From contig JAFZPK010000125.1 in the NCBI GenBank assembly GCA_017552515.1, positions 1-36,035 of the forward strand: 36,035 bases of DNA, read 5' to 3'. The position numbers and the translations under genes were made by a program. Below the pieces are notes generated by a model, which saw nothing but the letters and a program-made list of their open reading frames with translations, was not told where the DNA came from and ran no database searches. The DNA comes from Deltaproteobacteria bacterium (GTDB lineage: Bacteria > Desulfobacterota > Desulfuromonadia > Desulfuromonadales > JAAYDE01). Below, piece by piece: positions 1 to 36,035 of the stretch (position 1 is its first letter; each line of letters begins with the position of its first letter).

Positions 1-48
1 AAGGCTGTATAATGTGGCCGGCAGACCAAATAAGGAGTAGATACGATT

Positions 49-1449
49 ATGACGTGCATCATCCCGGTTATCCTCTGCGGCGGCAGCGGTACACGCCTCT
101 GGCCCCTTTCGCGTGAGAACTATCCCAAGCAGTTCGTGGACATGGGCGGGGGCAGAACGCTCTTTGGTGACACGCTTGAGCGTGCGCTGCAGGTGGACGG
201 TGCTGCAGATCCTGTCGTTGTGTGCAATGAGGCACACCGCTTCTATGTAGCCGCCGAACTTTACAAACGCGGTGTGAAGGCCACGGTGCTGCTTGAGCCC
301 GAGGGGCGCAACACGGCACCGGCACTGGCCATGGCCGCCTTTGCCGCACTTGAACGGAACAGGGAGGCGCTTCTGCTCGCTCTGCCGTCTGACCACGCCC
401 TTGGTGATGTCCCGGTTTTTTTACAGGGCGTGAAAGAGGCTTCGGCCATTGCCTCGCAGGGTTATATCGTGACCTTTGGCATCAGACCCACAGGACCGGA
501 GACTGGTTTCGGCTACATAGAGCAGGGTGAAGGATTCCATGTGGCACGCTTCGTGGAAAAACCCGACAGGCAAAAAGCCGAGGCCATGCTTGCCTCTGGC
601 GGCCACTACTGGAACAGCGGCATGTTTGTCATGCCCGCACAGCTCTATATGGACGAACTCAAGACCCACGCGGTCGCAATGTTTACCCAATGTACCCGGG
701 CCTGGGCGGGCAGGGAGGCGGACGGGGCCTTTATTCGTCCCATGAAGGATGACTTCCTGCAATGTTCTTCGGATTCCATCGACTACGCGGTCATGGAACA
801 CACCAGCAGGGCCGCCGTGGTCCCTCTTGATCTTGCCTGGAGTGATCTCGGCTCCTGGGAAGCATTTTACGAAGCCGGCAAAAAGGACGCACAGGGCAAT
901 GTGACCAAGGGAGATGTGTTGCTGGAAGATGCCACTGGCTGCTACTGCAATGCCAGAAGCCGGTTGCTTGCCTGTATCGGTATGCGTGACATGCTGGTGG
1001 TGGAGACGCAGGATGCCGTGCTTGTGGCACCGAGAAAGGCTGCCCAGCGCGTTAAGGAAGTGGCCCTGCGTCTGCGTAATGAGGGCCGCAAGGAGTACAG
1101 GGAGCCCCCCCTGGTCTATCGGCCCTGGGGCAGCTACGAAATACTGGTGCAGGGGGAGCGCTTTCAGGTGAAGCGCATTGTGGTGCATCCAGGTGAGCAG
1201 CTCTCACTGCAGATGCACTACCACAGGGCAGAGCATTGGGTCGTGGTGAGCGGCACGGCAGAGGTGACCAAGGGGGAGGAGACCCGCCTCTATACCGAGA
1301 ACCAGTCCACCTACATTCCCGTGGGCACGAAGCATATGCTCAAGAATCCCGGGCTGATACCGCTTGTGCTCATTGAGATACAGTCAGGCACGTATCTGGG
1401 CGAGGATGACATCGTGCGCTTTGCCGATATGTACGGAAGAAAGGAATAA
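49..1449 (+). CDS. manC: bifunctional mannose-1-phosphate guanylyltransferase / mannose-6-phosphate isomerase
   Basis: 466-aa ORF. N-terminal nucleotidyltransferase motif 'PVILCGGSGTRLWPLSR'. C-terminal cupin motif 'QMHYHRAEHWVVVSG'. aaggag lies upstream of the ATG. Confidence 0.9.
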   Translation: MTCIIPVILCGGSGTRLWPLSRENYPKQFVDMGGGRTLFGDTLERALQVDGAADPVVVCNEAHRFYVAAELYKRGVKATVLLEPEGRNTAPALAMAAFAALERNREALLLALPSDHALGDVPVFLQGVKEASAIASQGYIVTFGIRPTGPETGFGYIEQGEGFHVARFVEKPDRQKAEAMLASGGHYWNSGMFVMPAQLYMDELKTHAVAMFTQCTRAWAGREADGAFIRPMKDDFLQCSSDSIDYAVMEHTSRAAVVPLDLAWSDLGSWEAFYEAGKKDAQGNVTKGDVLLEDATGCYCNARSRLLACIGMRDMLVVETQDAVLVAPRKAAQRVKEVALRLRNEGRKEYREPPLVYRPWGSYEILVQGERFQVKRIVVHPGEQLSLQMHYHRAEHWVVVSGTAEVTKGEETRLYTENQSTYIPVGTKHMLKNPGLIPLVLIEIQSGTYLGEDDIVRFADMYGRKE

Positions 1450-7300: not shown

Positions 7301-7330
7301 TTGCCAGCTCAGGAGTTCTTTCACTATAAT
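7301..7330 (+). promoter_or_regulatory. candidate sigma70 promoter for the protease gene
   Basis: TTGCCA (7301-7306), an 18-nt spacer, then a perfect TATAAT (7325-7330). Confidence 0.45.
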
Positions 7331-7457
7331 GTACTATTTGGAGAGTTGGGTTTGCCGGAAACTTTCGAAAGCCGTGTTGTCTTTGTGCTGTAAGGCGGAT
7401 TTTTCCTGGCAGACGTGCGGCTCTTGCGCCCATCCATTTTCAGGAAATGATACAACT

Positions 7458-9548
7458 ATGAAAGCACCTGTCCAGATCCTTGTCTCGGCTCTGACCGCCT
7501 TTTTCCTTGTGGTTTCCACACTTGCCGCCGCGCCGGCATCCGACAACGACGAAGAACGGACGAGAATTTTGAGCCGTGTTCTGTGGCAACAGTTGACCCG
7601 TCTGCATTTCGTCCGGAAAAATTTTAACGACCAACTGTCCCGCGAGGCCTTTGGGCTCTTTCTTGAGCAGGTTGACGGCCAGAAACGTTTTCTGACCGAG
7701 CCGGATGTCCAGGAGCTGCGGCGTTATGAAACGCGTATTGATGACGAAATGTTGACGGGGCGGATTAATCTGCCGGAAGTTTGTGCGCAGCTCATGCGTG
7801 CCCGGGTGGAAAAAGTGGAGAAAATGGTGGAGGAACTGCTGAAAGGTGGTTTCCACCCAGGCCAGGACGAGGAGCTGGAAACCGATCCGCAGAAGCGGTT
7901 GTTCTGCGCCAACGACCAGGAGCTGAAGGAGCGCTGGCGCCTGCTGCTGAAGTACAGCATTCTGCTCAACTACGTCAATCTTGCCAAGGAGAAGAAGGAT
8001 GAGCAGGCTTTGGCGGGCGAGAAGCTGGATCCGGTGCTGTGGTCGGCCGCCCTGGAACAGACCAGGAAAAGCTGCCGCAGCATGTTTTCGCGCATGAAGA
8101 AGCAGGATATGCATGCCTTCCGGGTGTCCTACCTGAACGCGGTCACCCGGGCCTTCGATCCCCATACCAGCTACATGGATCCCAGTACCGAGGAAGAATT
8201 CGGCATCAGCATGAAGGGCTCGCTGGAAGGCATTGGCGCCAGCTTGCGCGAGGATGACAGCTACATCAAGGTGGTCGAGATTATTCCGGGCAGCGCCGCG
8301 GCCCGTCAGGGGCAGCTGGCCAAGGAGGATATCATCCTGAAGGTCGCGCAGGAAACCGGGGAGCCGGTGGATCTCTCGGAGATGCGGCTTCAGGATGCGG
8401 TCAAGCTGATTCGCGGCCCCAAGGGAACGGAGGTGCGGCTGTTTGTGAGGAAACCAAACGGCGACATGGTGACGATTCCGATAGTGCGCGACGTGGTCAA
8501 CATTGAGGAAACCTTCGTCAAGGGGGCGTTGCTGCATGAGAACCGCCCGGAGAACCGCTCTTTCGGCTATATCAAGATTCCGTCGTTCTACCGGGATCTG
8601 AGCGCTTCCGGTTTCGGCCGCGATGGGCGCAACGTTTCGGATGATTTCCATGCCGCCCTGGAGGATCTGAAACAGAAGGGGATGGAAGGGCTGATAGTGG
8701 ATCTGCGCGATAACGGCGGCGGAGCCCTGCAGGACACGATCAACATTACCGGCATGTTCATTGAAGGTGGACCGGTCGTGCAGATCAAGGACTACCGGGG
8801 CCTGATACGTCCGATGTACTCTTTTGAGGAAGAGGCGGAATTCACCGGGCCGGTGGTCGTTCTGGTCAACAAATTCAGCGCCTCGGCTTCCGAGATCCTG
8901 GCGGCGGCCCTTCAGGATTACGGGCGCGCGATCATCATTGGCGGCGATCATACGCACGGCAAGGGAACCGTACAGACGCTTATCGATCTGGATCAGAACG
9001 TGTTGACCCGCAATGTGGCCCGGTACGGCCCCTTTGGCGCCCTCAAGCTCACCGTCCAGAAATTTTACCGCATTAACGGTGATTCCACCCAGTACCGTGG
9101 CGTCATTCCCGACATCATCCTGCCGGATCGATTGTCACCGCTGGAAACCGGCGAACGTTATATGAAATATTCCCTTCCCTGGGACCGCATTGAACCGGTG
9201 TCGTATACCCAGTGGTCGCTGCGGCCCAACCTCGGGGAACTGCAGCGGGAAAGCCTGGCGCGGGTGCGCAAGAGCACGGCTTTTGCCGCCATTTCCAAGG
9301 AGATCTCCCTGGAAAAGGAGAAGATCGCCAACACGAGGCGTTCGCTGAACCTGAAGACAATGCTGAAAGAGATGAAAGAAGTGGAGCAGCTGGAAAAGGA
9401 ACCGGTACCCTGCTATGACTACACCGTGCAGGAGACCGGAACCGCCGATACGCAGCGGGAGGAAAAACAGCGTTTGCCCTATCAGCTGGTGCGGGATCCC
9501 TACGTTCAGGAAGCCTTCTTTGTTTTGGAAAGCCTGACGGCTCCATGA
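7458..9548 (+). CDS. prc: tail-specific (C-terminal processing) protease, S41 family
   Basis: The start was chosen at 'MKAPVQILVSALTAFFLVVSTLAAAPA', which is a signal peptide. PDZ region present. S41 core 'LRDNGGGAL', 'VVLVNKFSASASEILAAALQDYGRAIIIG', 'THGKGTVQT'. Confidence 0.85.
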   Translation: MKAPVQILVSALTAFFLVVSTLAAAPASDNDEERTRILSRVLWQQLTRLHFVRKNFNDQLSREAFGLFLEQVDGQKRFLTEPDVQELRRYETRIDDEMLTGRINLPEVCAQLMRARVEKVEKMVEELLKGGFHPGQDEELETDPQKRLFCANDQELKERWRLLLKYSILLNYVNLAKEKKDEQALAGEKLDPVLWSAALEQTRKSCRSMFSRMKKQDMHAFRVSYLNAVTRAFDPHTSYMDPSTEEEFGISMKGSLEGIGASLREDDSYIKVVEIIPGSAAARQGQLAKEDIILKVAQETGEPVDLSEMRLQDAVKLIRGPKGTEVRLFVRKPNGDMVTIPIVRDVVNIEETFVKGALLHENRPENRSFGYIKIPSFYRDLSASGFGRDGRNVSDDFHAALEDLKQKGMEGLIVDLRDNGGGALQDTINITGMFIEGGPVVQIKDYRGLIRPMYSFEEEAEFTGPVVVLVNKFSASASEILAAALQDYGRAIIIGGDHTHGKGTVQTLIDLDQNVLTRNVARYGPFGALKLTVQKFYRINGDSTQYRGVIPDIILPDRLSPLETGERYMKYSLPWDRIEPVSYTQWSLRPNLGELQRESLARVRKSTAFAAISKEISLEKEKIANTRRSLNLKTMLKEMKEVEQLEKEPVPCYDYTVQETGTADTQREEKQRLPYQLVRDPYVQEAFFVLESLTAP

Positions 9549-10198
9549 GCCCTTTGCGGCGGGCGCAGGAACCGGCGCAGCTGGTGGTTTTCGCGGCACA
9601 AAACGATTTTCTTGATTCCGGGCGCGAAGCTCTGTGCCGGGCCCTGTTGCCGCCGGAAAAGCTGGAAGCTGTCTTGCGCTACCGGCGGGAACGTGACCGG
9701 CGGCAGCGGCTGCTGGCGCGCCTTTTGCTGGCTCTGGCGCTGCGCCGTCTGGAGGGCTGGCCGGAGCGTCTTGCTCTGGAGCGCCTGGGGCATGAGGCAG
9801 CCGGGCGTCCCTACGTGAGGGGCTGCTCCTGGCGGATCAGTTTCACTCATGCCGGCGAGTGGGTGGTCTGCGCCCTGGGCAAGGCGGTGGGGGAAATCGG
9901 GGTGGATGTGGAACGCATTCGCCCGCTGGACCTGTGGGATTTCCGCCAGATTTTTTCCGCGCGGGAATGGCGGGCCATTCTGGATGCCCCATCGTCCGAA
10001 CGGGAACTCCTTCGCTACTGGACCCTCAAGGAGGCGGTGCTGAAAACGCGCGGCCTGGGGCTGTTGGCAACAGAAGACGAGATCCGCGCGGCGGGTTCCG
10101 GCGCCGAAATCTGGATGCATCTGCCGCTTGCGCCCGGTTACTGGCTGACGGTTGCGGCGCAACGGCCCTGGCGGAAACTCCAGCTGGAAAAGCTCTAA
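9545..10198 (+). CDS. 4'-phosphopantetheinyl transferase, Sfp/EntD type
   Basis: 217 aa with 'FTHAGEWVVCAL...GVDVE' and 'WTLKEAVLKTRGLG'. The ATG overlaps the prc stop (ATGA). Confidence 0.8.
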   Translation: MSPLRRAQEPAQLVVFAAQNDFLDSGREALCRALLPPEKLEAVLRYRRERDRRQRLLARLLLALALRRLEGWPERLALERLGHEAAGRPYVRGCSWRISFTHAGEWVVCALGKAVGEIGVDVERIRPLDLWDFRQIFSAREWRAILDAPSSERELLRYWTLKEAVLKTRGLGLLATEDEIRAAGSGAEIWMHLPLAPGYWLTVAAQRPWRKLQLEKL

Positions 10199-10249: not shown

Positions 10250-12316
10250 CTAGCTTTCCATGATCTTTTGCAGTTCTTCATCGGGAATCGCAACAATGGC
10301 CCGGACCACATCTTCCGCGAAGGTGCCGCTCTCGGAGGCCATGCGCTGCTTGGCCTCGGCCACGGTCATCGGCGTGCGGTGGGCGCGCTGGCCGGTCATC
10401 GCGCAGAAGACGTTGGCGGCAAACAGGATGCGGGCTTCCGGGAGCATCTCGTCCGGCGTCAGCGGCTTGAGATCCATTGCGGCGCTGTCCAGGACAACAT
10501 GCCCGCCCATCTGGTAGACCACGTCGGCCACCGGCAGCTCGCTCCGGTTGTAGGTAAAGCGGATGCCTTCCAGAAACTGATGGGCATAATAGGGTGCCAT
10601 CCGGACGGTTCTGCGCTCCTCGTCGGTGAAGACGCGCGAGCTGAGCATCAGTTCACGGGGAACAAACAGCTTGCCGATCTGCGAAAGCATGGAGGCCAGC
10701 CGCAGGGTTTCGGCGCTCTTCTCGTCCAGATTCATCTCCTGGACAAGCCGCTGCGCCAGCATTTCAAGATGGCGGGAGCGTCCCTGCAGATAATTGTTTT
10801 CCGGGCCATCCAGCGCGCATTCGATGCAGTGTACCAGTCCGGCCACGCAGCTGAGCTGCCGTTGCCGTTCCTCCTCCGCCTTGCGCATGAAGTCGTCCGT
10901 AATGTCCTTGAAAATGGCGACGCAGTCGCTGGGGGAACTTTTATCTTTGCTGCCATAGAGGGAGTGGAAGGGGAAGACATCCATCTGCAGCAGCCGTTCC
11001 TCGCCGTTGGGGGCGTCAATCCACACTTCCGAGCTGTGCTTTTCCGTGGCCATCGCCTCGTTCACATGTTTCAAGATGTCGGCCTGGCTGCTGTACTTGT
11101 TGACGAAGGCGTCGAAGGCCGGATTGCTCATGGTGAGCGTCTTGCCGCCCTTGATGAGCGCGATGCCGGCTTTTATGGAGGAGTTGACGCTTTCCAGCAC
11201 CTGTTTCTGGTCGTTGATGGTGGTGTAGAGCTTTCTGAAGTGGTTGCCGATCGTGCCGCCGCAGATCAGCCCCAGGAGCAGGGCGATCCCCAGGTCGCCC
11301 AGAATGCCCAGCGTATAGATCTTGCGCTTTTGAGCGTGTTTCCACTGGTCGGTGATCGCCGTGGATTTTTCCATGAAGAGATGCCAGCCGAGTTCCGGGA
11401 ATTTTTCACCCACCGACCATGCGTCATGTTTGGGCGTAATCAGGGAAGGACGTCTGGCAAAGGCGGTCATGCTTCCGATCTTCTCCATGGAGTGGCTGTG
11501 CAGAACGGGCTGCCCGTTTTCCAGATGGACAACCTGTTTGTCGGCCGTGCGGGTATCGACGAGCAGTCCCGGAAGAAATGTCCTGTCTTTCACCTTGCTG
11601 CTGGAGAGGAAGATCCGTATCGGCTCGTCAAGCGGCAGGGAAACCACCAGATAGCCCATGATGGCGCCGGACTCGTTGCTCAGGGCCTGGTACATCGGCT
11701 CCACCGCGGTGACGGCAAGATTTCCTTCCGCCGACATGGATATCGGGCTGAAGATGGTATGACGCTGGGCCGCGGCTTCCCTGATGAGGGCGGCGATATC
11801 GTCCGTTGCGGCTGGTGTTTCCTTTGGCGCGATCAGCGGAAGCGCGTTGAGGTCATAGATGGCCGCAGACTGCCATCCGCGGATGTTGACCGTGTCCTTG
11901 AGCAGGCCGGCAAGATAGTCAAGCTCCATGGTTACGGATTGCAGGGGATGCTCGTCGTTGTCGATCACCTCCTGGGAAATGACCGTTTGCCGCTCTTCCG
12001 GCGAGAGACGGGTGAAGTCCGTCAGGAACAGCTGAAAGGCTTCCGCGCGGCTGACGTGGCGGATCTGATCCTTGATCTTGCTCTCCCAGGCATGAACAGC
12101 TTCCGCCGCGCCGCTGATCCACGCCTGTTCAACCTCGCGCTGCTCGTTGAGCATCTCCTGCTCCGCAAGCCGCAGATGTGTCCGGCAGAAGATGCTGATG
12201 CCCATGCCTGCTATGATGAAAATGAGCAGGGCGGTGATCAGGATGACTTTCTTGGCGGTGTGATACTTCACTTCCATCGTGTTCTTTGCTTTTTCACGAG
12301 TTTGCAGGTCGCTCAT
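10250..12316 (-). CDS. LapD-like transmembrane receptor: TM, ~290-aa periplasmic domain, TM, PAS-like segment, degenerate HD-GYP domain
   Basis: 688 aa. Hydrophobic helices at about residues 23-44 and 335-358. The C-terminus resembles HD-GYP by eye, but 'LHDIGK' is 'LSQIGK', the HHE motif is absent and the GYP motif is absent. SD ggagagga upstream. The antisense 731-aa ORF is low-complexity. Confidence 0.6.
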   Translation of the reverse strand: MSDLQTREKAKNTMEVKYHTAKKVILITALLIFIIAGMGISIFCRTHLRLAEQEMLNEQREVEQAWISGAAEAVHAWESKIKDQIRHVSRAEAFQLFLTDFTRLSPEERQTVISQEVIDNDEHPLQSVTMELDYLAGLLKDTVNIRGWQSAAIYDLNALPLIAPKETPAATDDIAALIREAAAQRHTIFSPISMSAEGNLAVTAVEPMYQALSNESGAIMGYLVVSLPLDEPIRIFLSSSKVKDRTFLPGLLVDTRTADKQVVHLENGQPVLHSHSMEKIGSMTAFARRPSLITPKHDAWSVGEKFPELGWHLFMEKSTAITDQWKHAQKRKIYTLGILGDLGIALLLGLICGGTIGNHFRKLYTTINDQKQVLESVNSSIKAGIALIKGGKTLTMSNPAFDAFVNKYSSQADILKHVNEAMATEKHSSEVWIDAPNGEERLLQMDVFPFHSLYGSKDKSSPSDCVAIFKDITDDFMRKAEEERQRQLSCVAGLVHCIECALDGPENNYLQGRSRHLEMLAQRLVQEMNLDEKSAETLRLASMLSQIGKLFVPRELMLSSRVFTDEERRTVRMAPYYAHQFLEGIRFTYNRSELPVADVVYQMGGHVVLDSAAMDLKPLTPDEMLPEARILFAANVFCAMTGQRAHRTPMTVAEAKQRMASESGTFAEDVVRAIVAIPDEELQKIMES

Positions 12317-12413
12317 CCAAGTCCTCTCCGGTTGGGATTTCTGTCAGCCTTCATTTTTCGAAAAGTCCGGGGCGCCGGAACCGGCACGTATGCTGTTACG
12401 TGCATTTGTCTCT

Positions 12414-13046
12414 TCACAGCCGGGGACGAACCGGGATATGCGCCCAGCGATGCTCCTCGTTGACAGAAAAGTGAAGGGTGTAGCTGTGCAGAAAGGTGTG
12501 CTCCACAATGGCATCGCTCAGGTTGTCCATGAAATAGGCGGTGCCGTCCATATAGACAATAAGCGTGGCGTGGGCGATATCACGGATCGGATCCCTCATG
12601 ACGCCAATCCGCATTTGGGAGATGGGAAAACCCAGCGCCTTCAGCGTAAAATATTTGGTGATGGCGTAATCTTCACAATCGCCGGAGTTCTTGACGAATT
12701 CGTAGGGAGCCTCCCAGTAGTCGTCCCTGCCCCAGACAGACCGATCGGAGCGGTAGGGCTTGCCATTCCAGTACGAATGCACGAAGCGCAGCAGCTCCTT
12801 CCCCTGCATGTGGCTGGCCCGGTCGCGGAAGGTATCCCAGGAGATTTTCTCCTTGCCGTTGAACATGTAGCCGGGTTTGAAGATGGGCTGCCTCATGTTG
12901 CGCTGCATCGTCGCGATCCACACCGGAAGACTGGACAGCGGGCGCTTAAATTCAATCATGCCCATCAGCTTGACGTAGTTGGCGGCCTGGGCCCCGGTTA
13001 TGCCCGCAACAAGGAGGATTATGCAGAAAAAAATACGCGCATGCAC
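12414..13046 (-). CDS. periplasmic transglutaminase-like cysteine protease (BTLCP, LapG-like)
   Basis: 210 aa with a GTG start and SD ggagaagga. Signal peptide '...VAGITGAQA|AN'. Motifs 'SGDCEDYAITKY', 'IAHATLIVY' and 'FMDNL' fit a Cys-His-Asp triad. Confidence 0.8.
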   Translation of the reverse strand: MHARIFFCIILLVAGITGAQAANYVKLMGMIEFKRPLSSLPVWIATMQRNMRQPIFKPGYMFNGKEKISWDTFRDRASHMQGKELLRFVHSYWNGKPYRSDRSVWGRDDYWEAPYEFVKNSGDCEDYAITKYFTLKALGFPISQMRIGVMRDPIRDIAHATLIVYMDGTAYFMDNLSDAIVEHTFLHSYTLHFSVNEEHRWAHIPVRPRL

Positions 13047-13852: not shown

Positions 13853-14500
13853 TCAACGCGCCGTGGTTTTCATGGAGAGAATGGCCCAGGTGTCCTTGCC
13901 GTTCCACCTGCAGGGCCTGGCGGTAGCCTCGAAGGTGCAGGGCCGATCCTCCCTGTCATCGGCGTTGTAAATGTCGCCGGTCATGCGGATGATACCGTCC
14001 TCCTGCATCGCCTGCTTCACCTCGGCATGGTACACGGCCTCGCCGTCCGCTCCCTCGAAGTGATAGAGCTTGCCGTCGAAGTAATAGGGCGGGTCGGATT
14101 GATCGACACTGCGGTGCGTCAGATCGATGTTAAAGTACTTCTTGACGCTTTCCGCCACGGATTTGGCATCAATGACCAGCGAGCCGTGTTCGCAGTCCTT
14201 GACCGGGCATTGCCTGATCTGGCTTTGGTAGTTGTTAAGGTAGTTGTGCCAGATGCCGAAGCGGATCAGGTCCGGGTTCGACGGGTCGCCGCCCAGGTGC
14301 AGGACGTCATCATCCCCGCCTTTTTGAACGTCAAAGTTCATGAATCCGAGCTCGGTGAAGTTGCTGAGGAATGTACTCATCAGCTTGAGCTGCGCCTGGG
14401 AAAAACCGGCCGCCTGGTCGGCTTCCGCCGGGTTTTGCACGGAACAGATCCCCAACGCCAAACAGAACAGCAAGACTTTTCCCCAGAAGTATTTTCTCAT
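13853..14500 (-). CDS. exported hypothetical protein
   Basis: 215 aa. Signal peptide 'MRKYFWGKVLLFCLALGICSVQNPAEA'. SD gaggggga upstream. No family recognised. Confidence 0.65.
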   Translation of the reverse strand: MRKYFWGKVLLFCLALGICSVQNPAEADQAAGFSQAQLKLMSTFLSNFTELGFMNFDVQKGGDDDVLHLGGDPSNPDLIRFGIWHNYLNNYQSQIRQCPVKDCEHGSLVIDAKSVAESVKKYFNIDLTHRSVDQSDPPYYFDGKLYHFEGADGEAVYHAEVKQAMQEDGIIRMTGDIYNADDREDRPCTFEATARPCRWNGKDTWAILSMKTTAR

Positions 14501-14646
14501 TGCCCAATCCCCCTCTCAATTGAGGAACACGCGTTCCATGTTGAAAAACGCCCTTTTGAAATACTATAGTGGACATAAATAGTCGATCTTTAAAGCACCT
14601 TTGAATCTTTTACTGGCTGGCTGCCATGCGAAGAAGGAGAGAGACA

Positions 14647-15153
14647 ATGGCCAAATTCCCCGTGTTCCTGTTCCTCATGCTCTGCCTTGCCATATCTGTT
14701 CCCCGCGCCGAAGAAATCGCGGTAGATCCAGCGGCTCCCACCTATCATAATGCCCGTTTCGGCTTCTCTCTTTCCTGGACGCCGGGGAACTACACGGTGT
14801 CCGAGGCCGAGAACGGCGATGGCATCACCGTCACCGACGGCAAGGGCCTCACCATGCTGGCCTATGCCGCTCTTGATCCGAGAGTTGGTGACGTGACCCG
14901 CGAAGACTTTTTTGCCCGGGCCAACCGTAAAAAGGCCGCATACAGACGCGTCAACCGGCAGGAGGGGTGGTATGTTCTTTCCTATGTGGAGAACGGCAAC
15001 ATTGTCTACATCAAGCAATTCTATCATGAGGACCACTGGCCCACACTGCGTTTCGAATATCCGCAGTCCATGAAGCAGCAGTACGACCAGTTGGTCACAA
15101 AGGCGGTATCCACATTCCAGCCTTTCTTGTGCGATGGAGAATGTCTGCCGTGA
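14647..15153 (+). CDS. exported hypothetical protein
   Basis: 168 aa starting at 'MAKFPVFLFLMLCLAISVPRAEE'. A strong SD (aaggagag) lies 5 nt upstream. No family recognised. Confidence 0.65.
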   Translation: MAKFPVFLFLMLCLAISVPRAEEIAVDPAAPTYHNARFGFSLSWTPGNYTVSEAENGDGITVTDGKGLTMLAYAALDPRVGDVTREDFFARANRKKAAYRRVNRQEGWYVLSYVENGNIVYIKQFYHEDHWPTLRFEYPQSMKQQYDQLVTKAVSTFQPFLCDGECLP

Positions 15154-16184: not shown

Positions 16185-16520
16185 ATGAACAGACATTATC
16201 TCACCAACATGCCTTCGGAATGGGACAAGATCGCGCAGATCTTTGCGGCACTGGGTGACGAAACCCGCCAAAAGATCCTGCTGCTGTTTGAGCCGGGGGA
16301 ATCCATCAGCCGCAAGACCATCAGCGAGCTTTTACCGCTGAGCCAGACGGCGGTGGCGCATCACCTGACCACGCTGGTACGCACCGGACTGCTGATTCCT
16401 GCTCGGCACGGCAAGGAGATCTATTACACACTGGATCTGGAACGGTTGATCGATGCACTGGACCAGGTTCGCATTTACGCCGCGGACATGTTGGAGAAAA
16501 CAAAGGAACTGTCCTCCTGA
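16185..16520 (+). CDS. ArsR/SmtB-family winged-helix transcriptional regulator (no cysteines)
   Basis: 111 aa with 'FAALGDETRQKILLLF...ISELLPLSQTAVAHHLTTLVRTGLL...GKEIYYTL'. No SD, so the mRNA may be leaderless from P2. Confidence 0.85.
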   Translation: MNRHYLTNMPSEWDKIAQIFAALGDETRQKILLLFEPGESISRKTISELLPLSQTAVAHHLTTLVRTGLLIPARHGKEIYYTLDLERLIDALDQVRIYAADMLEKTKELSS

Positions 16521-16560
16521 ATTTTCCTCCCGCACGCACCGCGCCACAAGGAGGAAGGTA

Positions 16561-17193
16561 ATGAAGAGAATATTCGCCATTGCATTGATGTTGTTTATTG
16601 GAACCACATCTATCTCCGGTGAGGCTACTGCCAAAATCGCGGTTGGCAGTATCATTGAAAGTGCCACATTAGCAGTCAAGGAAGCAGCAAGTGCTGTTGG
16701 AGATGCAGCTGCCGTTGCAGGCAAAACAGTGTTTTCTGCAGGAGGGAAAGTAGTAAGTGCTGTTGAAGATGCAGCTATAGCTGCAGGAAAAGTAGCGATT
16801 GATGTAGGAGAGAAATCAGCAAGTGCCGTTGGAGATGTAGCTGTTACTGCAGGAAAAGCAGTGTTTTCTGTAGGTGAAGAGGCAGTAAGCACTATTAAAG
16901 GTGCAGTTGTTATTGCAGGCAAAGCAGCGATTCCTGCAGTAAGTGCTGTTAGAAATGCAGCTGCTGTTACAGAAACTTTTGTAAAAAAATATAAGACTCC
17001 TATTACAATATTTGCTTCTTTGATTGTACCAGAGTCCATGACCAAGGTTAAGCTTTTAGGAGATGCAGCTGTCGTTACAGGCACTTTTGTAAAAAAATAT
17101 GAGGCTCCTATTATAAAATTGGCTTCTTTGATTATACCAGAGCATATGACCGAGGTTAAGTTTTTGATTAATTTGTTAAGCTCATTGTCGTGA
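16561..17193 (+). CDS. exported Ala/Val/Gly/Lys-rich repeat protein (11/22-residue periodicity)
   Basis: 210 aa. Strong SD aggaggaagg. Signal peptide 'MKRIFAIALMLFIGTTSISGEATA|K'. Four 22-aa repeats and two 36-aa repeats. Visibly AT-rich relative to the host. Confidence 0.7.
   Translation: MKRIFAIALMLFIGTTSISGEATAKIAVGSIIESATLAVKEAASAVGDAAAVAGKTVFSAGGKVVSAVEDAAIAAGKVAIDVGEKSASAVGDVAVTAGKAVFSVGEEAVSTIKGAVVIAGKAAIPAVSAVRNAAAVTETFVKKYKTPITIFASLIVPESMTKVKLLGDAAVVTGTFVKKYEAPIIKLASLIIPEHMTEVKFLINLLSSLS
16699..16962 (+). repeat. 4 x 66-bp in-frame tandem repeat
   Basis: The units encode GDAAAVAGKTVFSAGGKVVSAV / EDAAIAAGKVAIDVGEKSASAV / GDVAVTAGKAVFSVGEEAVSTI / KGAVVIAGKAAIPAVSAVRNAA. Confidence 0.8.
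16957..17172 (+). repeat. 2 x 108-bp in-frame tandem repeat
   Basis: The unit gcagctg(c/t)(t/c)gttaca..ttttgtaaaaaaatat.. starts at 16957 and again at 17065. The units encode AAAVTETFVKKYKTPITIFASLIVPESMTKVKLLGD / AAVVTGTFVKKYEAPIIKLASLIIPEHMTEVKFLIN. Confidence 0.8.
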
Positions 17194-17301
17194 TGTAGTT
17201 CTGTTTTGTGCGAGAGTATAATAAATTTTTTGTAAACCAGTAGGCAAGTATATGCCTCTTGGATTGATGTTGATAGACTCGATTCAGGAGGCATTTTTTT
17301 T

Positions 17302-17556
17302 ATGACAAAACAAAGGAAACTAACACCAAAGAGAAGGGAACTGCTCAAGGAACTGCTACTGCCCGTTGTTGAAGGATATTCTGTTAAGCAAGTATATTCC
17401 TTTAACGGAGATGGTCGATAACAACGGGCAGGAACAGTTAAAAACAAGTCAGCTGTTTCCAGATATATTCGGGAAGCCCTTGAAGATGGTGTCATCAAGC
17501 TTTTCGACTCGGAAGCTCCAAAGAGCCAAATGAAGTATATGCCATTCTGGGTCTGA
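17302..17556 (+). pseudogene. small HTH-like gene interrupted by an in-frame TAA
   Basis: AGGAGG SD, then ATG at 17302. Reads 'MTKQRKLTPKRRELLKELLLPVVEGYSVKQVYSFNGDGR*QRAGTVKNKSAVSRYIREALEDGVIKLF...', with the TAA at 17419-17421. Confidence 0.4.
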
Positions 17557-18383: not shown

Positions 18384-19634
18384 ATGGACATTCTCCGCCC
18401 CATCTATCTGGAAAGACTGATACAACGCCGGGACAACGGCATGGCCAAGGTCATCACCGGTATCCGGCGCTGCGGCAAGTCGTATCTGCTCTTCAACATC
18501 TTCCGGCGGCATTTGCTGGAGGCGGGCGTGCCCAAAGAACGTATCGTAGGCGTCGATCTGGACGGCATCGAAAATGAAGGGCTGCGCGAGCCGCACCGGC
18601 TGTACAGCCACATCAGGGAGCGGCTCGCGGGCAATCCCGGTTACGTACTCATCGACGAAATCCAGTATGTGGAGCGTTTTGCCGACGTGGTCAACGGGCT
18701 CATGCGCCTGCCCGGCGTGGATGTGTACATCACTGGCAGCAATTCGCGCTTCCTTTCCACCGACATCCTCACCGAGTTTCGCGGACGCGGCGACGAGGTG
18801 CGGGTGCGGCCCCTCAGTTTCGCCGAGTACCTGCCCGCCCACGGCGGCACCCCGCAGGCGGCCTGGAAGGACTACTACACCTTCGGCGGCCTGCCGCTCA
18901 CGCTTTCCCGGCCCGACGACACGGCCCGCATGGAATATCTGGCCAGTCTTTTCGATACAGTGTACCTGCGCGACATCTGCGACCGCAACCGCCTGCGGCA
19001 TCTGGACGAACTGAACGCTTTGACGGACATCCTCGCCTCGGCCGCCGGTTCCCTCACCAGCCCGCACCGCATCGAAAACACCTTCAAAAGCCGGCAGCGT
19101 AAGGCGGTCAGCGACAAGACCATTACCGCCTGGATCGACTTTCTTGCCGACGCCTTCCTGCTGGAAGGGGCCCGGCAGTACGACGTGCGCGGCCGCCGCC
19201 ACATCGACTCTCCCCGCAAGTACTATTTCACCGACACGGGTTTGCGCAACGCCCGCCTGGGCTTCCGCGAGCAGGACGAGAACCACCTGATGGAAACCGT
19301 GATTTACAATGAGTTGCGGGCGCGCGGCTATGCGGTGGACGTGGGCATGATCGAGGCCACGGAAGCGAACGGTGACGGCAAGCGCGGCAGGCAGCGTTTG
19401 GAGGTGGATTTCGTGGCGCGGCGGGGCAATGACCAGTGCTACATCCAGTCGGCCTTCGCCCTTCCAACCGATGCCAAGGCGGAACAGGAGTACCGCCCGC
19501 TCAGGAAGATCCGGGACGCCTTCCGCAAGTTTGTCATCGTGCGGGACGACATCAAGGCCAAACGCGACGCAGACGGCATTGTAACCCTGGGGCTTTGGGA
19601 TTTTTTGCTGGATCGGGACAGTCTGGCCCGGTAA
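18384..19634 (+). CDS. AAA+ ATPase of the AAA_14 / DUF4143 type
   Basis: 416 aa. Walker A 'TGIRRCGKSYLL', Walker B 'YVLIDEIQYV', 'YITGSNSRFLS', and a C-terminal nuclease-like region 'EVDFVARRG'. Confidence 0.85.
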   Translation: MDILRPIYLERLIQRRDNGMAKVITGIRRCGKSYLLFNIFRRHLLEAGVPKERIVGVDLDGIENEGLREPHRLYSHIRERLAGNPGYVLIDEIQYVERFADVVNGLMRLPGVDVYITGSNSRFLSTDILTEFRGRGDEVRVRPLSFAEYLPAHGGTPQAAWKDYYTFGGLPLTLSRPDDTARMEYLASLFDTVYLRDICDRNRLRHLDELNALTDILASAAGSLTSPHRIENTFKSRQRKAVSDKTITAWIDFLADAFLLEGARQYDVRGRRHIDSPRKYYFTDTGLRNARLGFREQDENHLMETVIYNELRARGYAVDVGMIEATEANGDGKRGRQRLEVDFVARRGNDQCYIQSAFALPTDAKAEQEYRPLRKIRDAFRKFVIVRDDIKAKRDADGIVTLGLWDFLLDRDSLAR

Positions 19635-19723: not shown

Positions 19724-19811
19724 TGGCGGAGAGGGAGGGATTCGAACCCCCGGTACCTGACGGTACAATTGCTTTCGAGGCAATCACCTTCAACCACTCG
19801 GACACCTCTCC
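19724..19811 (-). tRNA. tRNA-Ser (anticodon CGA)
   Basis: The reverse complement folds as acceptor GGAGAGG/CCTCTCC and anticodon stem ATTGC/GCAAT with loop CTCGAAA. It has a long variable arm GTACC-GTCA-GGTAC, a T loop GGTTCGAATCC, and an encoded CCA. Confidence 0.9.
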
Positions 19812-19825
19812 GCGGATCGTTTCGC

Positions 19826-20308
19826 TTAAGTAACAGCTTTTTTACGCTCGCGCAAGGAAAAGAAAAAACCGCTCAGCAGATTTCCGCACAGTTCGTCCAG
19901 AACGCCTTCCGTGACCTCCACACGATGGTTGAAGTGCGGATCCGCGGAGAAGTTGTGGACGGAACCGGCCGCGCCCGCGCGCGGATCCCGGCAGCCGAAC
20001 ACCAGGCGCGGAATGCGCGCCAGAATGATGGCCCCCATGCACATGGTGCAGGGCTCCAGCGTGACGTACAGCGTGCAGTCGCACAGCCGCCAGGAGCCCA
20101 AAGCCGCGGCGGCGGCCTGAATGGCGGTCAACTCCGCGTGGGCGGTGGGATCCTGCGCGGTTTCGCGCCGGTTGCCGCCGCGCGCGATGATCACTCCATC
20201 GTGGACGATGACCGCGCCCACCGGCACTTCGTCAAGCAGCGCCGCGCGGCGCGCCTCCCGCAGCGCTTCCAGCATGAAAAGCTGATCGGTGCTAAACTGT
20301 TGTTCCAT
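19826..20308 (-). CDS. tadA: tRNA-specific adenosine deaminase
   Basis: 160 aa with 'PVGAVIV', 'HAELTAI' and '[12 protein letters not shown]' (the CDA zinc motif). It is the 3' end of a spurious 964-aa ORF. Confidence 0.9.
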
Positions 20309-20560
20309 GAAACGTTTTTCTTCCTTGGCACTTTTCAGGATTGCATCCGCGCTAGGATATCCCGGATAATAAATATCTTTCCCTTTTGGAAAAACCGAAA
20401 GCAAGGGCCCAGGCTGTTTTTGAACCGTTGGAGACGAGCATACAAACCGCGAGCGCGCTTCGCAAGTCTCTGTAAAGAGCGGGTCGGCGGCCATGCCTGT
20501 TTCGGGCGGAGATACCTTTCGCGCCTTGCGCTTTTGCGCTGTTCTTGAGATGGAGTTGCC

Positions 20561-22651
20561 ATGACCAGTGAAAAGAGTCCTGACGATATCGTTTCGATGC
20601 CGGTTTTCACCACCGAAGACGAGGCCTTGCCGGCGCAGCTGTGTCCGGGCGCCGTGCTGCTGCGGAAAATTCTCATCGGGGAGCGGATGTGGCGGGTGAC
20701 CATCGCGGCCGCCGATCGGCGCGGCCTGCTTTCGGTTCTGGCCGGTCTGTTCACCGCAACTGGTGTCGATATCCGGCGCGCCCGGCTGACCACCCGCCGG
20801 GAACTGCGCGCCGTCCTCGACCTGTTCGAGGTGAGCCTGCCGGAAACGATCACGGAGACCGCCGTCTTCTGGAACGAATTCGAGGAGGAGCTGCGCGAAC
20901 TGCTGCGCCTGGAGGCGCCCGCCGCCCGCCTGCGCCTGATCGATCGTATCTGCAGCGCCATGCATGACCGCCCGCATCCCGAACATCCGCTTTTGCCGGT
21001 GGCCATCCGCTTCGACAATGAGGCCGCGCCGGATCTGACCGCCCTGCATATCCGCTACGAAGACACCCAGGGCTTTCTGTTTTCCTTCGCCAACGCGCTG
21101 AGCATGCTCGAGATCAATATCGAAAACGCCGAGATCCGCACCGACGGCACCACGGTTCGCGACACCTTCTGGATCCAGGACACGCAGCGCCGCAAGATCG
21201 ACGATCCGGGCAAGCTCATGCAGATTCGTGCCGCCTGCGCGCTTATCAAGCAGTTTACCCACATGCTGCCCCTGTCCGCCGATCCCGGGCAGGCGCTGCG
21301 CCAGTTTGGCGATCTGGTGCGGCAGGTGCTGTTCCAGCGGGAATGGGCCGGCGATCTGGGCGGCATCAGCTCGCAGCGGGCGCTCAATACGCTGGCGACC
21401 GTCATGGGCGTCAGCCGTTTTTTGTGGGAAGATTTTCTGCGGATGCAGCATGAAAATCTCTTTCCGCTGCTTTCGGACAAAAACGCGCTGGAGCAGAGTT
21501 TCAGCCGGAACGATTTTGCCGCCGCGCTGGACGAGGAGTTGAAAAGCGCCGGAAACTATGACGAACGGGCGCAGATCCTCAACAACTTTAAGGACCGCCA
21601 CATGTTCCGCGTCGATTTGCAGCACATTACCGGCCGGATTGGCGATATCTGCTTTTCGTCGGAGCTGAGCGATCTGGCCGATGTGGTGGTGGAGCGCATG
21701 GCGTGGCTCTGTTACGAACATCTTTCCGGCCAGTGCGGTGAACCACGCCTGGAGGACGGCCGGCCCTGCCGCTGGGCGGTGCTGGCGGCGGGAAAGACCG
21801 GAGGGCGCGAGATGGGTTTCGCCTCCGACATCGAGCTGATCTTCGTCTACGAGGGCGCGGGAACGTGTGCGGGCGATCCGGCGCTGGACAACGGCCGCTT
21901 TTTCGAGAAGCTGGCCCGCCTGTTCGTGCATGATTTGAAGGCGCGGCGGGAGGGCATTTTCCATGTCGATATGCAGCTGCGCCCGCATGGCGCCAGGGGA
22001 CCGCTGGCGACCTCGCTTGAGGCTTTTGCCCGCTACTATGCGCCGTCTGGAGGGGCGGCGCAGTTCGAACGCATGGCGCTGGTGCGCCTGCGGCCGGTAG
22101 CCGGTGGTGCGGAGCTGGCCAAAGAGGTGATGGCCCTGCGCGACGCCTTCGTCTACAGCGGAGCGCCTCTGGATATCGGCGAGATTCGCCGTCTGCGCGC
22201 GCGCCAGCTTGCGGAATCCGTGACGCCCGGCGCCATCAATGTCAAATACGGGGCGGGCGGCCTGGTCGATCTGGAATATTTCATTCAGGCCCTGCAGATC
22301 CGCTATGGGCACGAGCTTCCGGAACTGCGGGTGACCAACACCGCCGTGGCGCTGAACCGGCTGCAGCAGGCCGGTATCGTCGGCGAGGAACTTGCCGAGC
22401 GCGTTCGCCGTGTTTACCGCTGCCTGCGGCGCCTGATCGACGCGCTGCGAGTGGTGCGCGGCAATGCCCGTGATCTTGCGGTTCCTCCGGCGGATTCCTC
22501 CGATTTCGGCTACCTGGCGCGGCGCCTGGGCTATACTCCGGAGGAACTGACGGCCGAACTTGACTGGAGCATGCGCTGCTGTGAAAGCCTGTGGCAGGAG
22601 AAGGAGCTCCTGACCGGCGGGCCGCGCACGGCGCCGGATGAGGCGGATTGA
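20561..22651 (+). CDS. GlnE-family nucleotidyltransferase (glutamine synthetase adenylyltransferase-like) with two N-terminal ACT-like domains
   Basis: 696 aa with 'AAGKTGGREMGFASDIELIFVYE', 'VDMQLRPHGARGPLATSLEAF' and 'FERMALVRLRPVAG'. N-terminal ACT-like segments are 'VTIAAADRRGLLSVLAGLFTATGVDIRRARL' and 'LHIRYEDTQGFLFSFANALSMLEINIENAEI'. Confidence 0.75.
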   Translation: MTSEKSPDDIVSMPVFTTEDEALPAQLCPGAVLLRKILIGERMWRVTIAAADRRGLLSVLAGLFTATGVDIRRARLTTRRELRAVLDLFEVSLPETITETAVFWNEFEEELRELLRLEAPAARLRLIDRICSAMHDRPHPEHPLLPVAIRFDNEAAPDLTALHIRYEDTQGFLFSFANALSMLEINIENAEIRTDGTTVRDTFWIQDTQRRKIDDPGKLMQIRAACALIKQFTHMLPLSADPGQALRQFGDLVRQVLFQREWAGDLGGISSQRALNTLATVMGVSRFLWEDFLRMQHENLFPLLSDKNALEQSFSRNDFAAALDEELKSAGNYDERAQILNNFKDRHMFRVDLQHITGRIGDICFSSELSDLADVVVERMAWLCYEHLSGQCGEPRLEDGRPCRWAVLAAGKTGGREMGFASDIELIFVYEGAGTCAGDPALDNGRFFEKLARLFVHDLKARREGIFHVDMQLRPHGARGPLATSLEAFARYYAPSGGAAQFERMALVRLRPVAGGAELAKEVMALRDAFVYSGAPLDIGEIRRLRARQLAESVTPGAINVKYGAGGLVDLEYFIQALQIRYGHELPELRVTNTAVALNRLQQAGIVGEELAERVRRVYRCLRRLIDALRVVRGNARDLAVPPADSSDFGYLARRLGYTPEELTAELDWSMRCCESLWQEKELLTGGPRTAPDEAD

Positions 22652-22802
22652 AAATGAGGGCGGAAGGAGCCCGGTTTGCCGGGGATCGGTGGAATTGTGT
22701 GGAACAGTGGTTGACAACATCGTGATTTTATGAATGAATTACAAATTTGCTCCGATGCGCTACAGATCGGAAAATGATTTTCATCAAGGAGAGAGAAGAA
22801 CA

Positions 22803-35985: not shown

Positions 35986-36035
35986 TGGTGCCCAGGGACG
36001 GAATCGAACCATCGACACGAGGATTTTCAGTCCTC
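35986..36035 (-). tRNA. tRNA-Phe (anticodon GAA), 3' portion; truncated by the window edge
   Basis: The reverse complement reads GAGGA-CTGAAAA-TCCTC (anticodon arm), GATGG-TTCGATT-CCGTC (T arm), then CCTGGGC-A-CCA. Confidence 0.8.

Follow-up and report, generated by a model that had tools for sequence, protein, structure and literature searches.

A probable divergent DvhG/DvhD-type module with a fully degenerate HD-GYP receptor in a deltaproteobacterial contig

Can a catalytically dead HD-GYP domain take the place of the GGDEF-EAL module in a Lap-type switch, in which a cytoplasmic receptor domain controls a periplasmic protease? The question is raised by two neighboring minus-strand genes in a 36,035-nucleotide stretch of contig JAFZPK010000125.1 (assembly GCA_017552515.1, Deltaproteobacteria bacterium), hereafter the window, which encode a small LapG-like protease and a large membrane receptor with a degenerate HD-GYP domain (Table 1). 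The original prediction, made from the sequence, had proposed such an inside-out switch for this pair. The proposal matches DvhG/DvhD, to which both window proteins are homologous, and is not new, having been published in 2024 and 2026. The window pair is likely to be a divergent module of this already published type, the Desulfovibrionales counterpart of LapG/LapD. The direct basis for this reading is homology, the loss of all catalytic ligands although most ligand contacts are kept, the adjacency of the two genes throughout the family, and purifying selection.

In Desulfovibrio vulgaris Hildenborough, DVU1020 (DvhD) adjoins the LapG-like protease DvhG (DVU1019) (Karbelkar et al., PNAS 2024, PMC10990149). 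DvhD has a predicted-inactive HD-GYP domain and binds cyclic di-GMP (c-di-GMP; dissociation constant, Kd, 322 nM), and its restraint of DvhG depends on c-di-GMP (PMC10990149). Font et al. (Nat Commun 2026, PMC13090378) reported that HD is replaced by SQ and HH by MN in DvhD, and that the protein has no bound metal and shows no hydrolysis with any metal tested. They listed its ligand contact residues and proposed an inside-out mechanism based on stalk splaying, with the periplasmic dCache domain of DvhD controlling DvhG (PMC13090378). The system also occurs in other Desulfovibrionales, where most DvhG orthologues bear signal peptides (PMC13090378). For the window receptor, the ligand had been left open between c-di-GMP, another nucleotide and none; for the characterised homologue DvhD it is c-di-GMP, bound with a Kd of ~0.1-0.3 µM, while 3'3'-cyclic GMP-AMP (3'3'-cGAMP) is bound more weakly, at ~0.5 µM (PMC10990149, PMC13090378).

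By alignment, the window receptor is homologous to DvhD along its whole length. A phmmer search with the receptor alone reached the DvhD chains 9rc0_A (E 1e-20, residues 365-676) and 9rbz (E 5e-18). A family profile built from the receptor and seven homologues (profile A1) matched 9rc0 and 9rbz with E values of 4e-61 and 2.7e-50, respectively. When the receptor model was submitted to Foldseek, the top five matches were DvhD chains (9rbz, E 3.5e-10, target TM-score 0.75-0.78). Both receptors share the order of transmembrane helix, dCache domain, transmembrane helix, PAS domain and metal-free HD-GYP domain, and in both systems the BTLCP gene precedes the receptor gene. The size of the receptor, its position 97 nucleotides downstream of the protease gene and its transmembrane, periplasmic and PAS-like parts, all described in the original prediction, agree with the coordinates, the hydrophobic segments and a weak PAS_4 match.

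The region between the two transmembrane helices is assigned to the dCache fold on the strength of the family profile, which matched the DvhD periplasmic domain (PDB 9rc2_A) over profile positions 63-320 with an E value of 3.7e-21. The earlier remark that this domain is about twice as long as that of LapD stands as regards the length, which is explained by the dCache fold and not by an enlarged LapD_MoxY_N domain. A Pfam scan of the receptor at E <= 1 gave HD_5 and a weak PAS_4 as its sole matches, and no LapD_MoxY_N, Cache, HAMP, GGDEF or EAL domain was found. With none of the LapD domains matched, membership of the receptor in LapD was rejected. The likeness to LapG/LapD of Pseudomonas fluorescens and Legionella pneumophila thus lies in a periplasmic BTLCP protease under inside-out control by a degenerate c-di-GMP-turnover domain, whereas the receptor itself is unrelated to LapD and would not be expected to carry a conserved Trp hook.

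The best-conserved periplasmic helix of the receptor spans residues 126-146, with the motif L-x-Y-[LM]-x-x-L-L-K-D, and ends in R146-x-W148. It probably corresponds to the α1' segment, which lies at the interface with DvhG in a published AlphaFold 3 model, an assignment derived from the secondary structure of the window receptor model. W148 had been put forward as a lone Trp comparable to the LapG-binding Trp of LapD. However, six Trp residues (66, 77, 148, 300, 311 and 325) lie between the two transmembrane helices. Of 58 sequences, 51 have Trp in the W148 column, six have Leu and one, DvhD, has Phe, and the LapD-type Trp pocket is reported to be occluded in DvhG (PMC13090378). Given the Phe in DvhD and the occluded pocket, a LapD-like Trp hook is unsupported, and a mechanism of this kind was rejected, W148 not being conserved in DvhD.

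The protease scored 60.4 bits against Pfam Peptidase_C93/BTLCP (PF06035; cut-off 27) and aligned with the LapG structures 4fgo (E 4.9e-17) and 4u65 (E 3.1e-15). Its core is homologous to that of LapG (E ~1e-15 to 1e-17), with the same triad and calcium motif: D123-C124-E125, H159 and D174 fall on conserved LapG positions, giving the Cys-His-Asp triad C124, H159 and D174 and predicted calcium-binding Asp/Glu residues on both sides of the catalytic Cys. The DvhG mutants D316A/E318A and C317A, which alter the equivalents of the window D-C-E positions, are inactive. All 56 aligned BTLCPs of the family have D-C-E-D without variation, and 55 of them also have the catalytic His and Asp, the remaining one showing an alignment gap there. 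D-C-E, His and Asp motifs are likewise found in both the window protease and DvhG. The gene boundaries, the signal peptide and the Cys, His and Asp motifs given in the original prediction are all borne out, the motifs by the Pfam match and the structural alignments and the signal peptide by the N-terminus of the 210-residue protein. Scoring 77.1 bits against the NCBIfam LapG equivalog (NF045674; cut-off 320), the protease is by profile LapG-like and no gammaproteobacterial LapG equivalog. In contrast to DvhG, which has a transmembrane anchor, it has a predicted cleavable signal peptide, lacks the ~180-residue linker and is compact.

The receptor matches Pfam HD_5 (PF13487) with 75.6 bits (cut-off 27.2, residues 508-665), and its fold is shared with the active HD-GYP proteins PmGH (4mcw), PA4781 (4r8z) and V-cGAP3 (5z7c) (Foldseek E 1e-6 to 1e-5; profile E 1e-11 to 1e-26). 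On the other hand, all of their metal ligands and the GYP motif are replaced. Compared with the phosphodiesterase V-cGAP3, none of the eight metal ligands and none of the three GYP residues is kept: the His of GHS is R513, HD is S545-Q546, HH is M603-G604, the Glu is G605, the last Asp is N635 and GYP is M-D-L. The third metal-ligand His (H588 in DvhD) is Ala, or Pro given a one-column alignment shift. The alignment thereby confirms that every catalytic motif is replaced and that an intact H/HD/HH/D ligand set is absent, as originally proposed, but the reading of HHE as YQM was misaligned by two residues, the aligned triplet being M-G-G. The changes of HD to SQ, of the first His of HH to Met and of the last Asp to Asn are common to DvhD, the window receptor and all family members in which that region is present, apart from Cys for the Ser of SQ in four loci and Thr for Asn in one.

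Since all metal ligands and GYP are replaced, the window protein appears to be a receptor and not an enzyme. An active HD-GYP phosphodiesterase that adjoins a BTLCP gene by chance would account for the HD_5 score above threshold and for the label "c-di-GMP phosphodiesterase class II" that JGI gives to a relative. Nevertheless, no ligand and no GYP are left in the window receptor, DvhD is without hydrolytic activity although it keeps more of the ligands, and the neighboring BTLCP gene recurs throughout the family (see below). This possibility was rejected for want of any kept ligand, and we give it virtually no chance.

The receptor residues equivalent to the DvhD ligand contacts are Y509, P553, F563, R568, M640, R644, H646, R647 and E662. 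Y509, P553, M640, R644, R647 and E662 are identical to Y523, P567, M646, R650, R653 and E668 of DvhD, while L577, K582 and Y652 correspond to F563, R568 and H646, respectively, and are listed as conservative changes. The contacts lost in the window are Y621 (Met or Asp), K520 (Ala) and R569 (Glu). The P567, M646, R650 and R653 columns, kept in both receptors, are nearly invariant among the 58 sequences. In DvhD, mutations of P567, M646, R650 and Y652/R653 impaired c-di-GMP-dependent stabilisation and dimerisation (PMC13090378).

Several observations weigh against assigning the pair to the DvhG/DvhD type. The identity between the window receptor and DvhD is 23-30%. Y652, which stacks on the base in DvhD, is His in the window; the GYP Tyr Y621, a phosphate contact, is gone together with H527 and E614; and the GYP loop carries an insertion, which is preceded by another of five residues (TYNRS). 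In the periplasmic part, a phmmer search of the PDB with the window region alone returned nothing relevant and did not reach 9rc2, and the Foldseek match of the model to the 9rc2 dCache domain was weak (rank 43, target TM-score 0.40). The AlphaFold2 model was built from an eight-sequence alignment and is mediocre (predicted local distance difference test score, pLDDT, 60), with a poor periplasmic lobe (pLDDT <50 for residues 231-323), and therefore the fold evidence for dCache is weak. A search with the DvhD 9rc0 chain for the DVU1020/DvhG locus gave only matches of at most 59% identity, many of them short or partial. Finally, the 36-kb window holds no type I secretion system (T1SS) or adhesin.

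DvhD keeps H527, H588, E614 and G-Y-P, all of which the window receptor has lost, and the PAS domain of the window receptor is shortened relative to that of DvhD, lacking segments of 15 and 14 residues found in Desulfovibrio homologues. Unlike DvhG/DvhD, the window pair is separated by 97 nucleotides and has no adjacent T1SS or DvhA-like adhesin. As to the GYP motif, its Tyr is absent from most Desulfovibrio homologues too, indicating that the family can do without it.

A scan of GTDB species genomes yielded 56 loci, one of which (L058) encodes an unrelated HD-GYP protein in a Solirubrobacterales genome. All others come from Desulfovibrio, Bilophila, Mailhella or other Desulfovibrionaceae, or from metagenome-assembled genomes (MAGs) labelled at most Deltaproteobacteria, Proteobacteria or bacterium. 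In 55 of the 55 related loci for which upstream sequence exists, the gene immediately preceding that of the receptor, on the same strand, encodes a BTLCP, and two further loci (L059 and L060) show the same arrangement. The recurrent adjacency on which the switch reading depended is therefore present throughout. When 1.84 billion representatives were searched exhaustively, 57 proteins matched at E <= 1e-30, and the full-length relatives of ~690 residues numbered well over 100. The closest relative of the receptor, on the sister contig L059, is 87% identical and is the sole close one, the next being at most 41% identical. Close relatives are annotated as "hypothetical protein [Deltaproteobacteria bacterium]" in MAGs.

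Comparison with the sister contig gave a ratio of nonsynonymous to synonymous substitution rates (dN/dS) of 0.29 for the whole receptor and of 0.24-0.31 across its domains. The stalk and HD-GYP portion is the best-conserved part, with a dN/dS of 0.24 and 95% amino-acid identity. These values imply that the degenerate HD-GYP domain is maintained by selection. A decaying pseudogene was rejected in view of the dN/dS of about 0.3 and the intact open reading frames (ORFs). Synonymous divergence (dS) between window positions 10250-12316 and sister positions 230-2293 is uneven, at 0.41-0.47 in the N-terminal and periplasmic half and 0.11-0.14 from the second transmembrane helix to the C-terminus, which hints at recombination within the receptor gene or differing constraint on its halves.

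According to tables of the aligned columns, the window receptor groups with eight loci from MAGs of rumen Desulfovibrionaceae (L041, L042, L045 and L047-L051). Their DvhD-like proteins share the GRS/MGG signature with it as well as the Y523 and K582-to-R states, and their genes are likewise orphan pairs with no T1SS within 10 kb. The window and this sub-clade have additionally lost H527 (Arg), E614 (Gly) and the Pro of G-x-P, and have His, Asn or Thr in place of Y652. Judged by these columns, the window copy (H527 to Arg, E614 to Gly, GYP lost) is the most degenerate HD-GYP domain in the family. The rumen proteins differ from it in that the whole PAS domain (window residues 360-478) is missing in the seven examined, L051 not being among them, whereas the window keeps a shortened PAS. 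They also have Arg at the guanine-specificity column E668 in all eight loci, and their identity to the window receptor is 33-38%. In the PAS-less rumen receptors, the second transmembrane helix leads almost straight into the HD-GYP stalk.

The losses in the sub-clade bear on an alternative in which the protein belongs to the same family, but sensing of c-di-GMP by the HD-GYP domain has been lost in this lineage. The domain would then have a different nucleotide as its ligand, for instance 3'3'-cGAMP, or act as a mere dimerisation scaffold, with control of the protease coming from dCache or PAS, either outside-in or independently of a ligand. The missing H527, E614, G-x-P Pro and GYP Tyr, the substitutions of Y652 and the Arg at E668 in the eight rumen loci all lean this way, as do the binding of 3'3'-cGAMP by DvhD itself (Kd ~0.5 µM) and the extracytoplasmic ligands that are usual for dCache domains. 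However, the window receptor keeps Y509, P553, M640, R644, R647 and E662, among which are the equivalents of the most mutation-sensitive residues of DvhD. The GYP Tyr is also missing in most Desulfovibrio homologues, and the HD-GYP domain is the part best conserved in the sister contig. We therefore consider a loss of c-di-GMP sensing unlikely, and prefer a c-di-GMP receptor of the DvhD type.

Genes of the OEP, ABC and MFP components of a T1SS stand beside the pair in 16 related loci, while T1SS genes are missing from at least 14 related loci for which the full 10 kb is present on either side. Orphan pairs like that of the window are thus common. As the original prediction had stated, neither a T1SS nor a giant adhesin was found among the scanned window ORFs of at least 150 amino acids, a set that left out five ORFs, most of which overlap annotated genes on the opposite strand. 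A synteny search found no third conserved gene, and only the pair was syntenic with any other locus. The missing T1SS and adhesin, the confinement of synteny to two genes and the relatives that also lack T1SS genes would suit an orphan, re-targeted module, in which the protease would process some other periplasmic or envelope substrate. Yet Lap-type adhesins are often encoded away from their regulators, and the second substrate in D. vulgaris, DVU1545, is unlinked. Furthermore, neither the catalytic nor the calcium site varies, the surface on which the retention domain docks is reported to be conserved across Desulfovibrionales (PMC13090378), and 16 relatives do lie beside a T1SS. Such re-targeting seems very improbable to us, and an adhesin substrate, as in the DvhG/DvhD system, is preferred.

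The mechanism that we propose for the window pair takes nucleotide binding, inside-out signalling, restraint of the protease and the identity of the substrate from the work on D. vulgaris, by analogy. The 210-residue protein would be exported through its signal peptide and act in the periplasm as a calcium-dependent BTLCP cysteine protease, and the 688-residue protein would form a dimeric receptor in the inner membrane. The dead HD-GYP domain would bind a cyclic dinucleotide, most likely c-di-GMP, without metal, through the conserved Arg, Met, Pro and aromatic contacts. Binding would splay the stalk helices, and the change would be relayed through the PAS domain and the transmembrane helices to the dCache domain, which would then restrain the protease. 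A drop in nucleotide would free the protease to clip the N-terminal retention module of a T1SS-secreted adhesin, releasing the adhesin from the cell. Both the adhesin and its T1SS would have to be encoded outside the window in the same genome.

The protease gene starts with GTG, preceded by a ribosome-binding site (GGAGAAGG). The two genes are probably co-transcribed, since a ribosome-binding site precedes the ATG of the receptor gene and no same-strand terminator was found in the spacer, the terminator scan giving only plus-strand hairpins at chance level. A promoter scan near the pair was likewise at chance level, and an Rfam scan there found no riboswitch or other RNA element or family. In the sister contig, conservation is lower in the spacer than in the coding sequence on either side.

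Table 1. Positions of the protease-receptor pair and its parts in the window
Feature	Position (nt)	Residues	Strand	Description
Protease gene	12414..13046		-	210 aa; predicted DvhG-like BTLCP (Peptidase_C93) periplasmic cysteine protease
Protease signal peptide	12984-13046	1-21	-	Hydrophobic N-terminus closing with AQA/AN
Protease-receptor spacer	12317..12413		-	97 nt; ribosome-binding site GGAGAGGA 6 nt before ATG
Receptor gene	10250..12316		-	688 aa; transmembrane helix (TM), ~290-aa periplasmic domain, TM, PAS, HD-GYP
Receptor TM1	12185..12250	~23-44	-	Kyte-Doolittle hydrophobic segment 18-48, mean 2.79
Receptor periplasmic domain	11315..12184	~45-334	-	Homologous to DvhD dCache, by family profile
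Receptor TM2	11243..11314	~335-358	-	Hydrophobic segment 332-357
Shortened cytoplasmic PAS	10883..11224	~365-478	-	PAS_4 21.6 bits, below cut-off; aligns to PAS part of 9rc0
Stalk helix and degenerate HD-GYP	10253..10882	479-688	-	HD_5; alignments to 9rbz and 9rc0; Foldseek

In the surroundings of the pair, a tail-specific protease (Prc, S41 with PDZ) and a 4'-phosphopantetheinyl transferase (7329-10198, plus strand) converge on the receptor gene, an arrangement kept in the sister contig and in no other locus. Just upstream of the protease gene, ORFs at 13853-14500 (minus strand) and 14626-15153 (plus strand) encode proteins of 215 and 175 residues with signal-peptide-like hydrophobic N-termini. 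Pfam, PADLOC and PHROGs gave no match for either, and they stand beside the pair in no related locus. A 388-residue ORF at 16332-17498 (minus strand) occupies the part of the window with the lowest GC content (~45%), and it too has no Pfam, PADLOC or PHROGs match.

Further along, an ATPase with AAA_14 and DUF4143 domains (18384-19634, plus strand) has a very strong match (E 1.5e-114) to PDC-S01, a candidate defence family in PADLOC. The stretch around it is low in GC (45-50%, against ~58% elsewhere), directly adjoins tRNA-Ser(cga) at 19724-19811 and may be a small integrated island. A 964-residue ORF at 19826-22720 (minus strand) has a TadA-like deaminase domain only in its last ~150 residues and overlaps an ORF for a GlnE/GlnD-type nucleotidyltransferase (20561-22651, plus strand). 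This long ORF probably arises as an artefact of high GC around a short tadA gene beside the tRNA. At 35989-36035 (minus strand), a partial tRNA (Rfam 29.8 bits) is cut by the end of the window.

As a discovery, the window pair carries little weight, given that the publications of 2024 and 2026 already describe DvhG/DvhD in its architecture, ligand, structures and phylogenetic spread. The database labels "hypothetical" and "phosphodiesterase" that these proteins still bear could be corrected, and among gut and rumen Desulfovibrionaceae it is common to find orphan two-gene modules to which no T1SS is linked. One further conjecture, which we hold to be quite unlikely, is that the window and its rumen relatives form a derived DvhD lineage, marked by GRS/MGG, the loss of GYP, a shortened or deleted PAS and the lack of a linked T1SS, which does not sense c-di-GMP, responds to another ligand or none and directs its BTLCP protease to a non-adhesin substrate. 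If true, the DvhDG family would comprise two functional types, this lineage being the second. The comparative value of the window receptor, preferred here as a c-di-GMP receptor of the DvhD type, is that the most degenerate HD-GYP domain of the family is still under purifying selection. The positions that survive in it (S/Q, M, N, P567, the L577-like residue, M646, R650 and R653) narrow down the minimal metal-free c-di-GMP receptor site.

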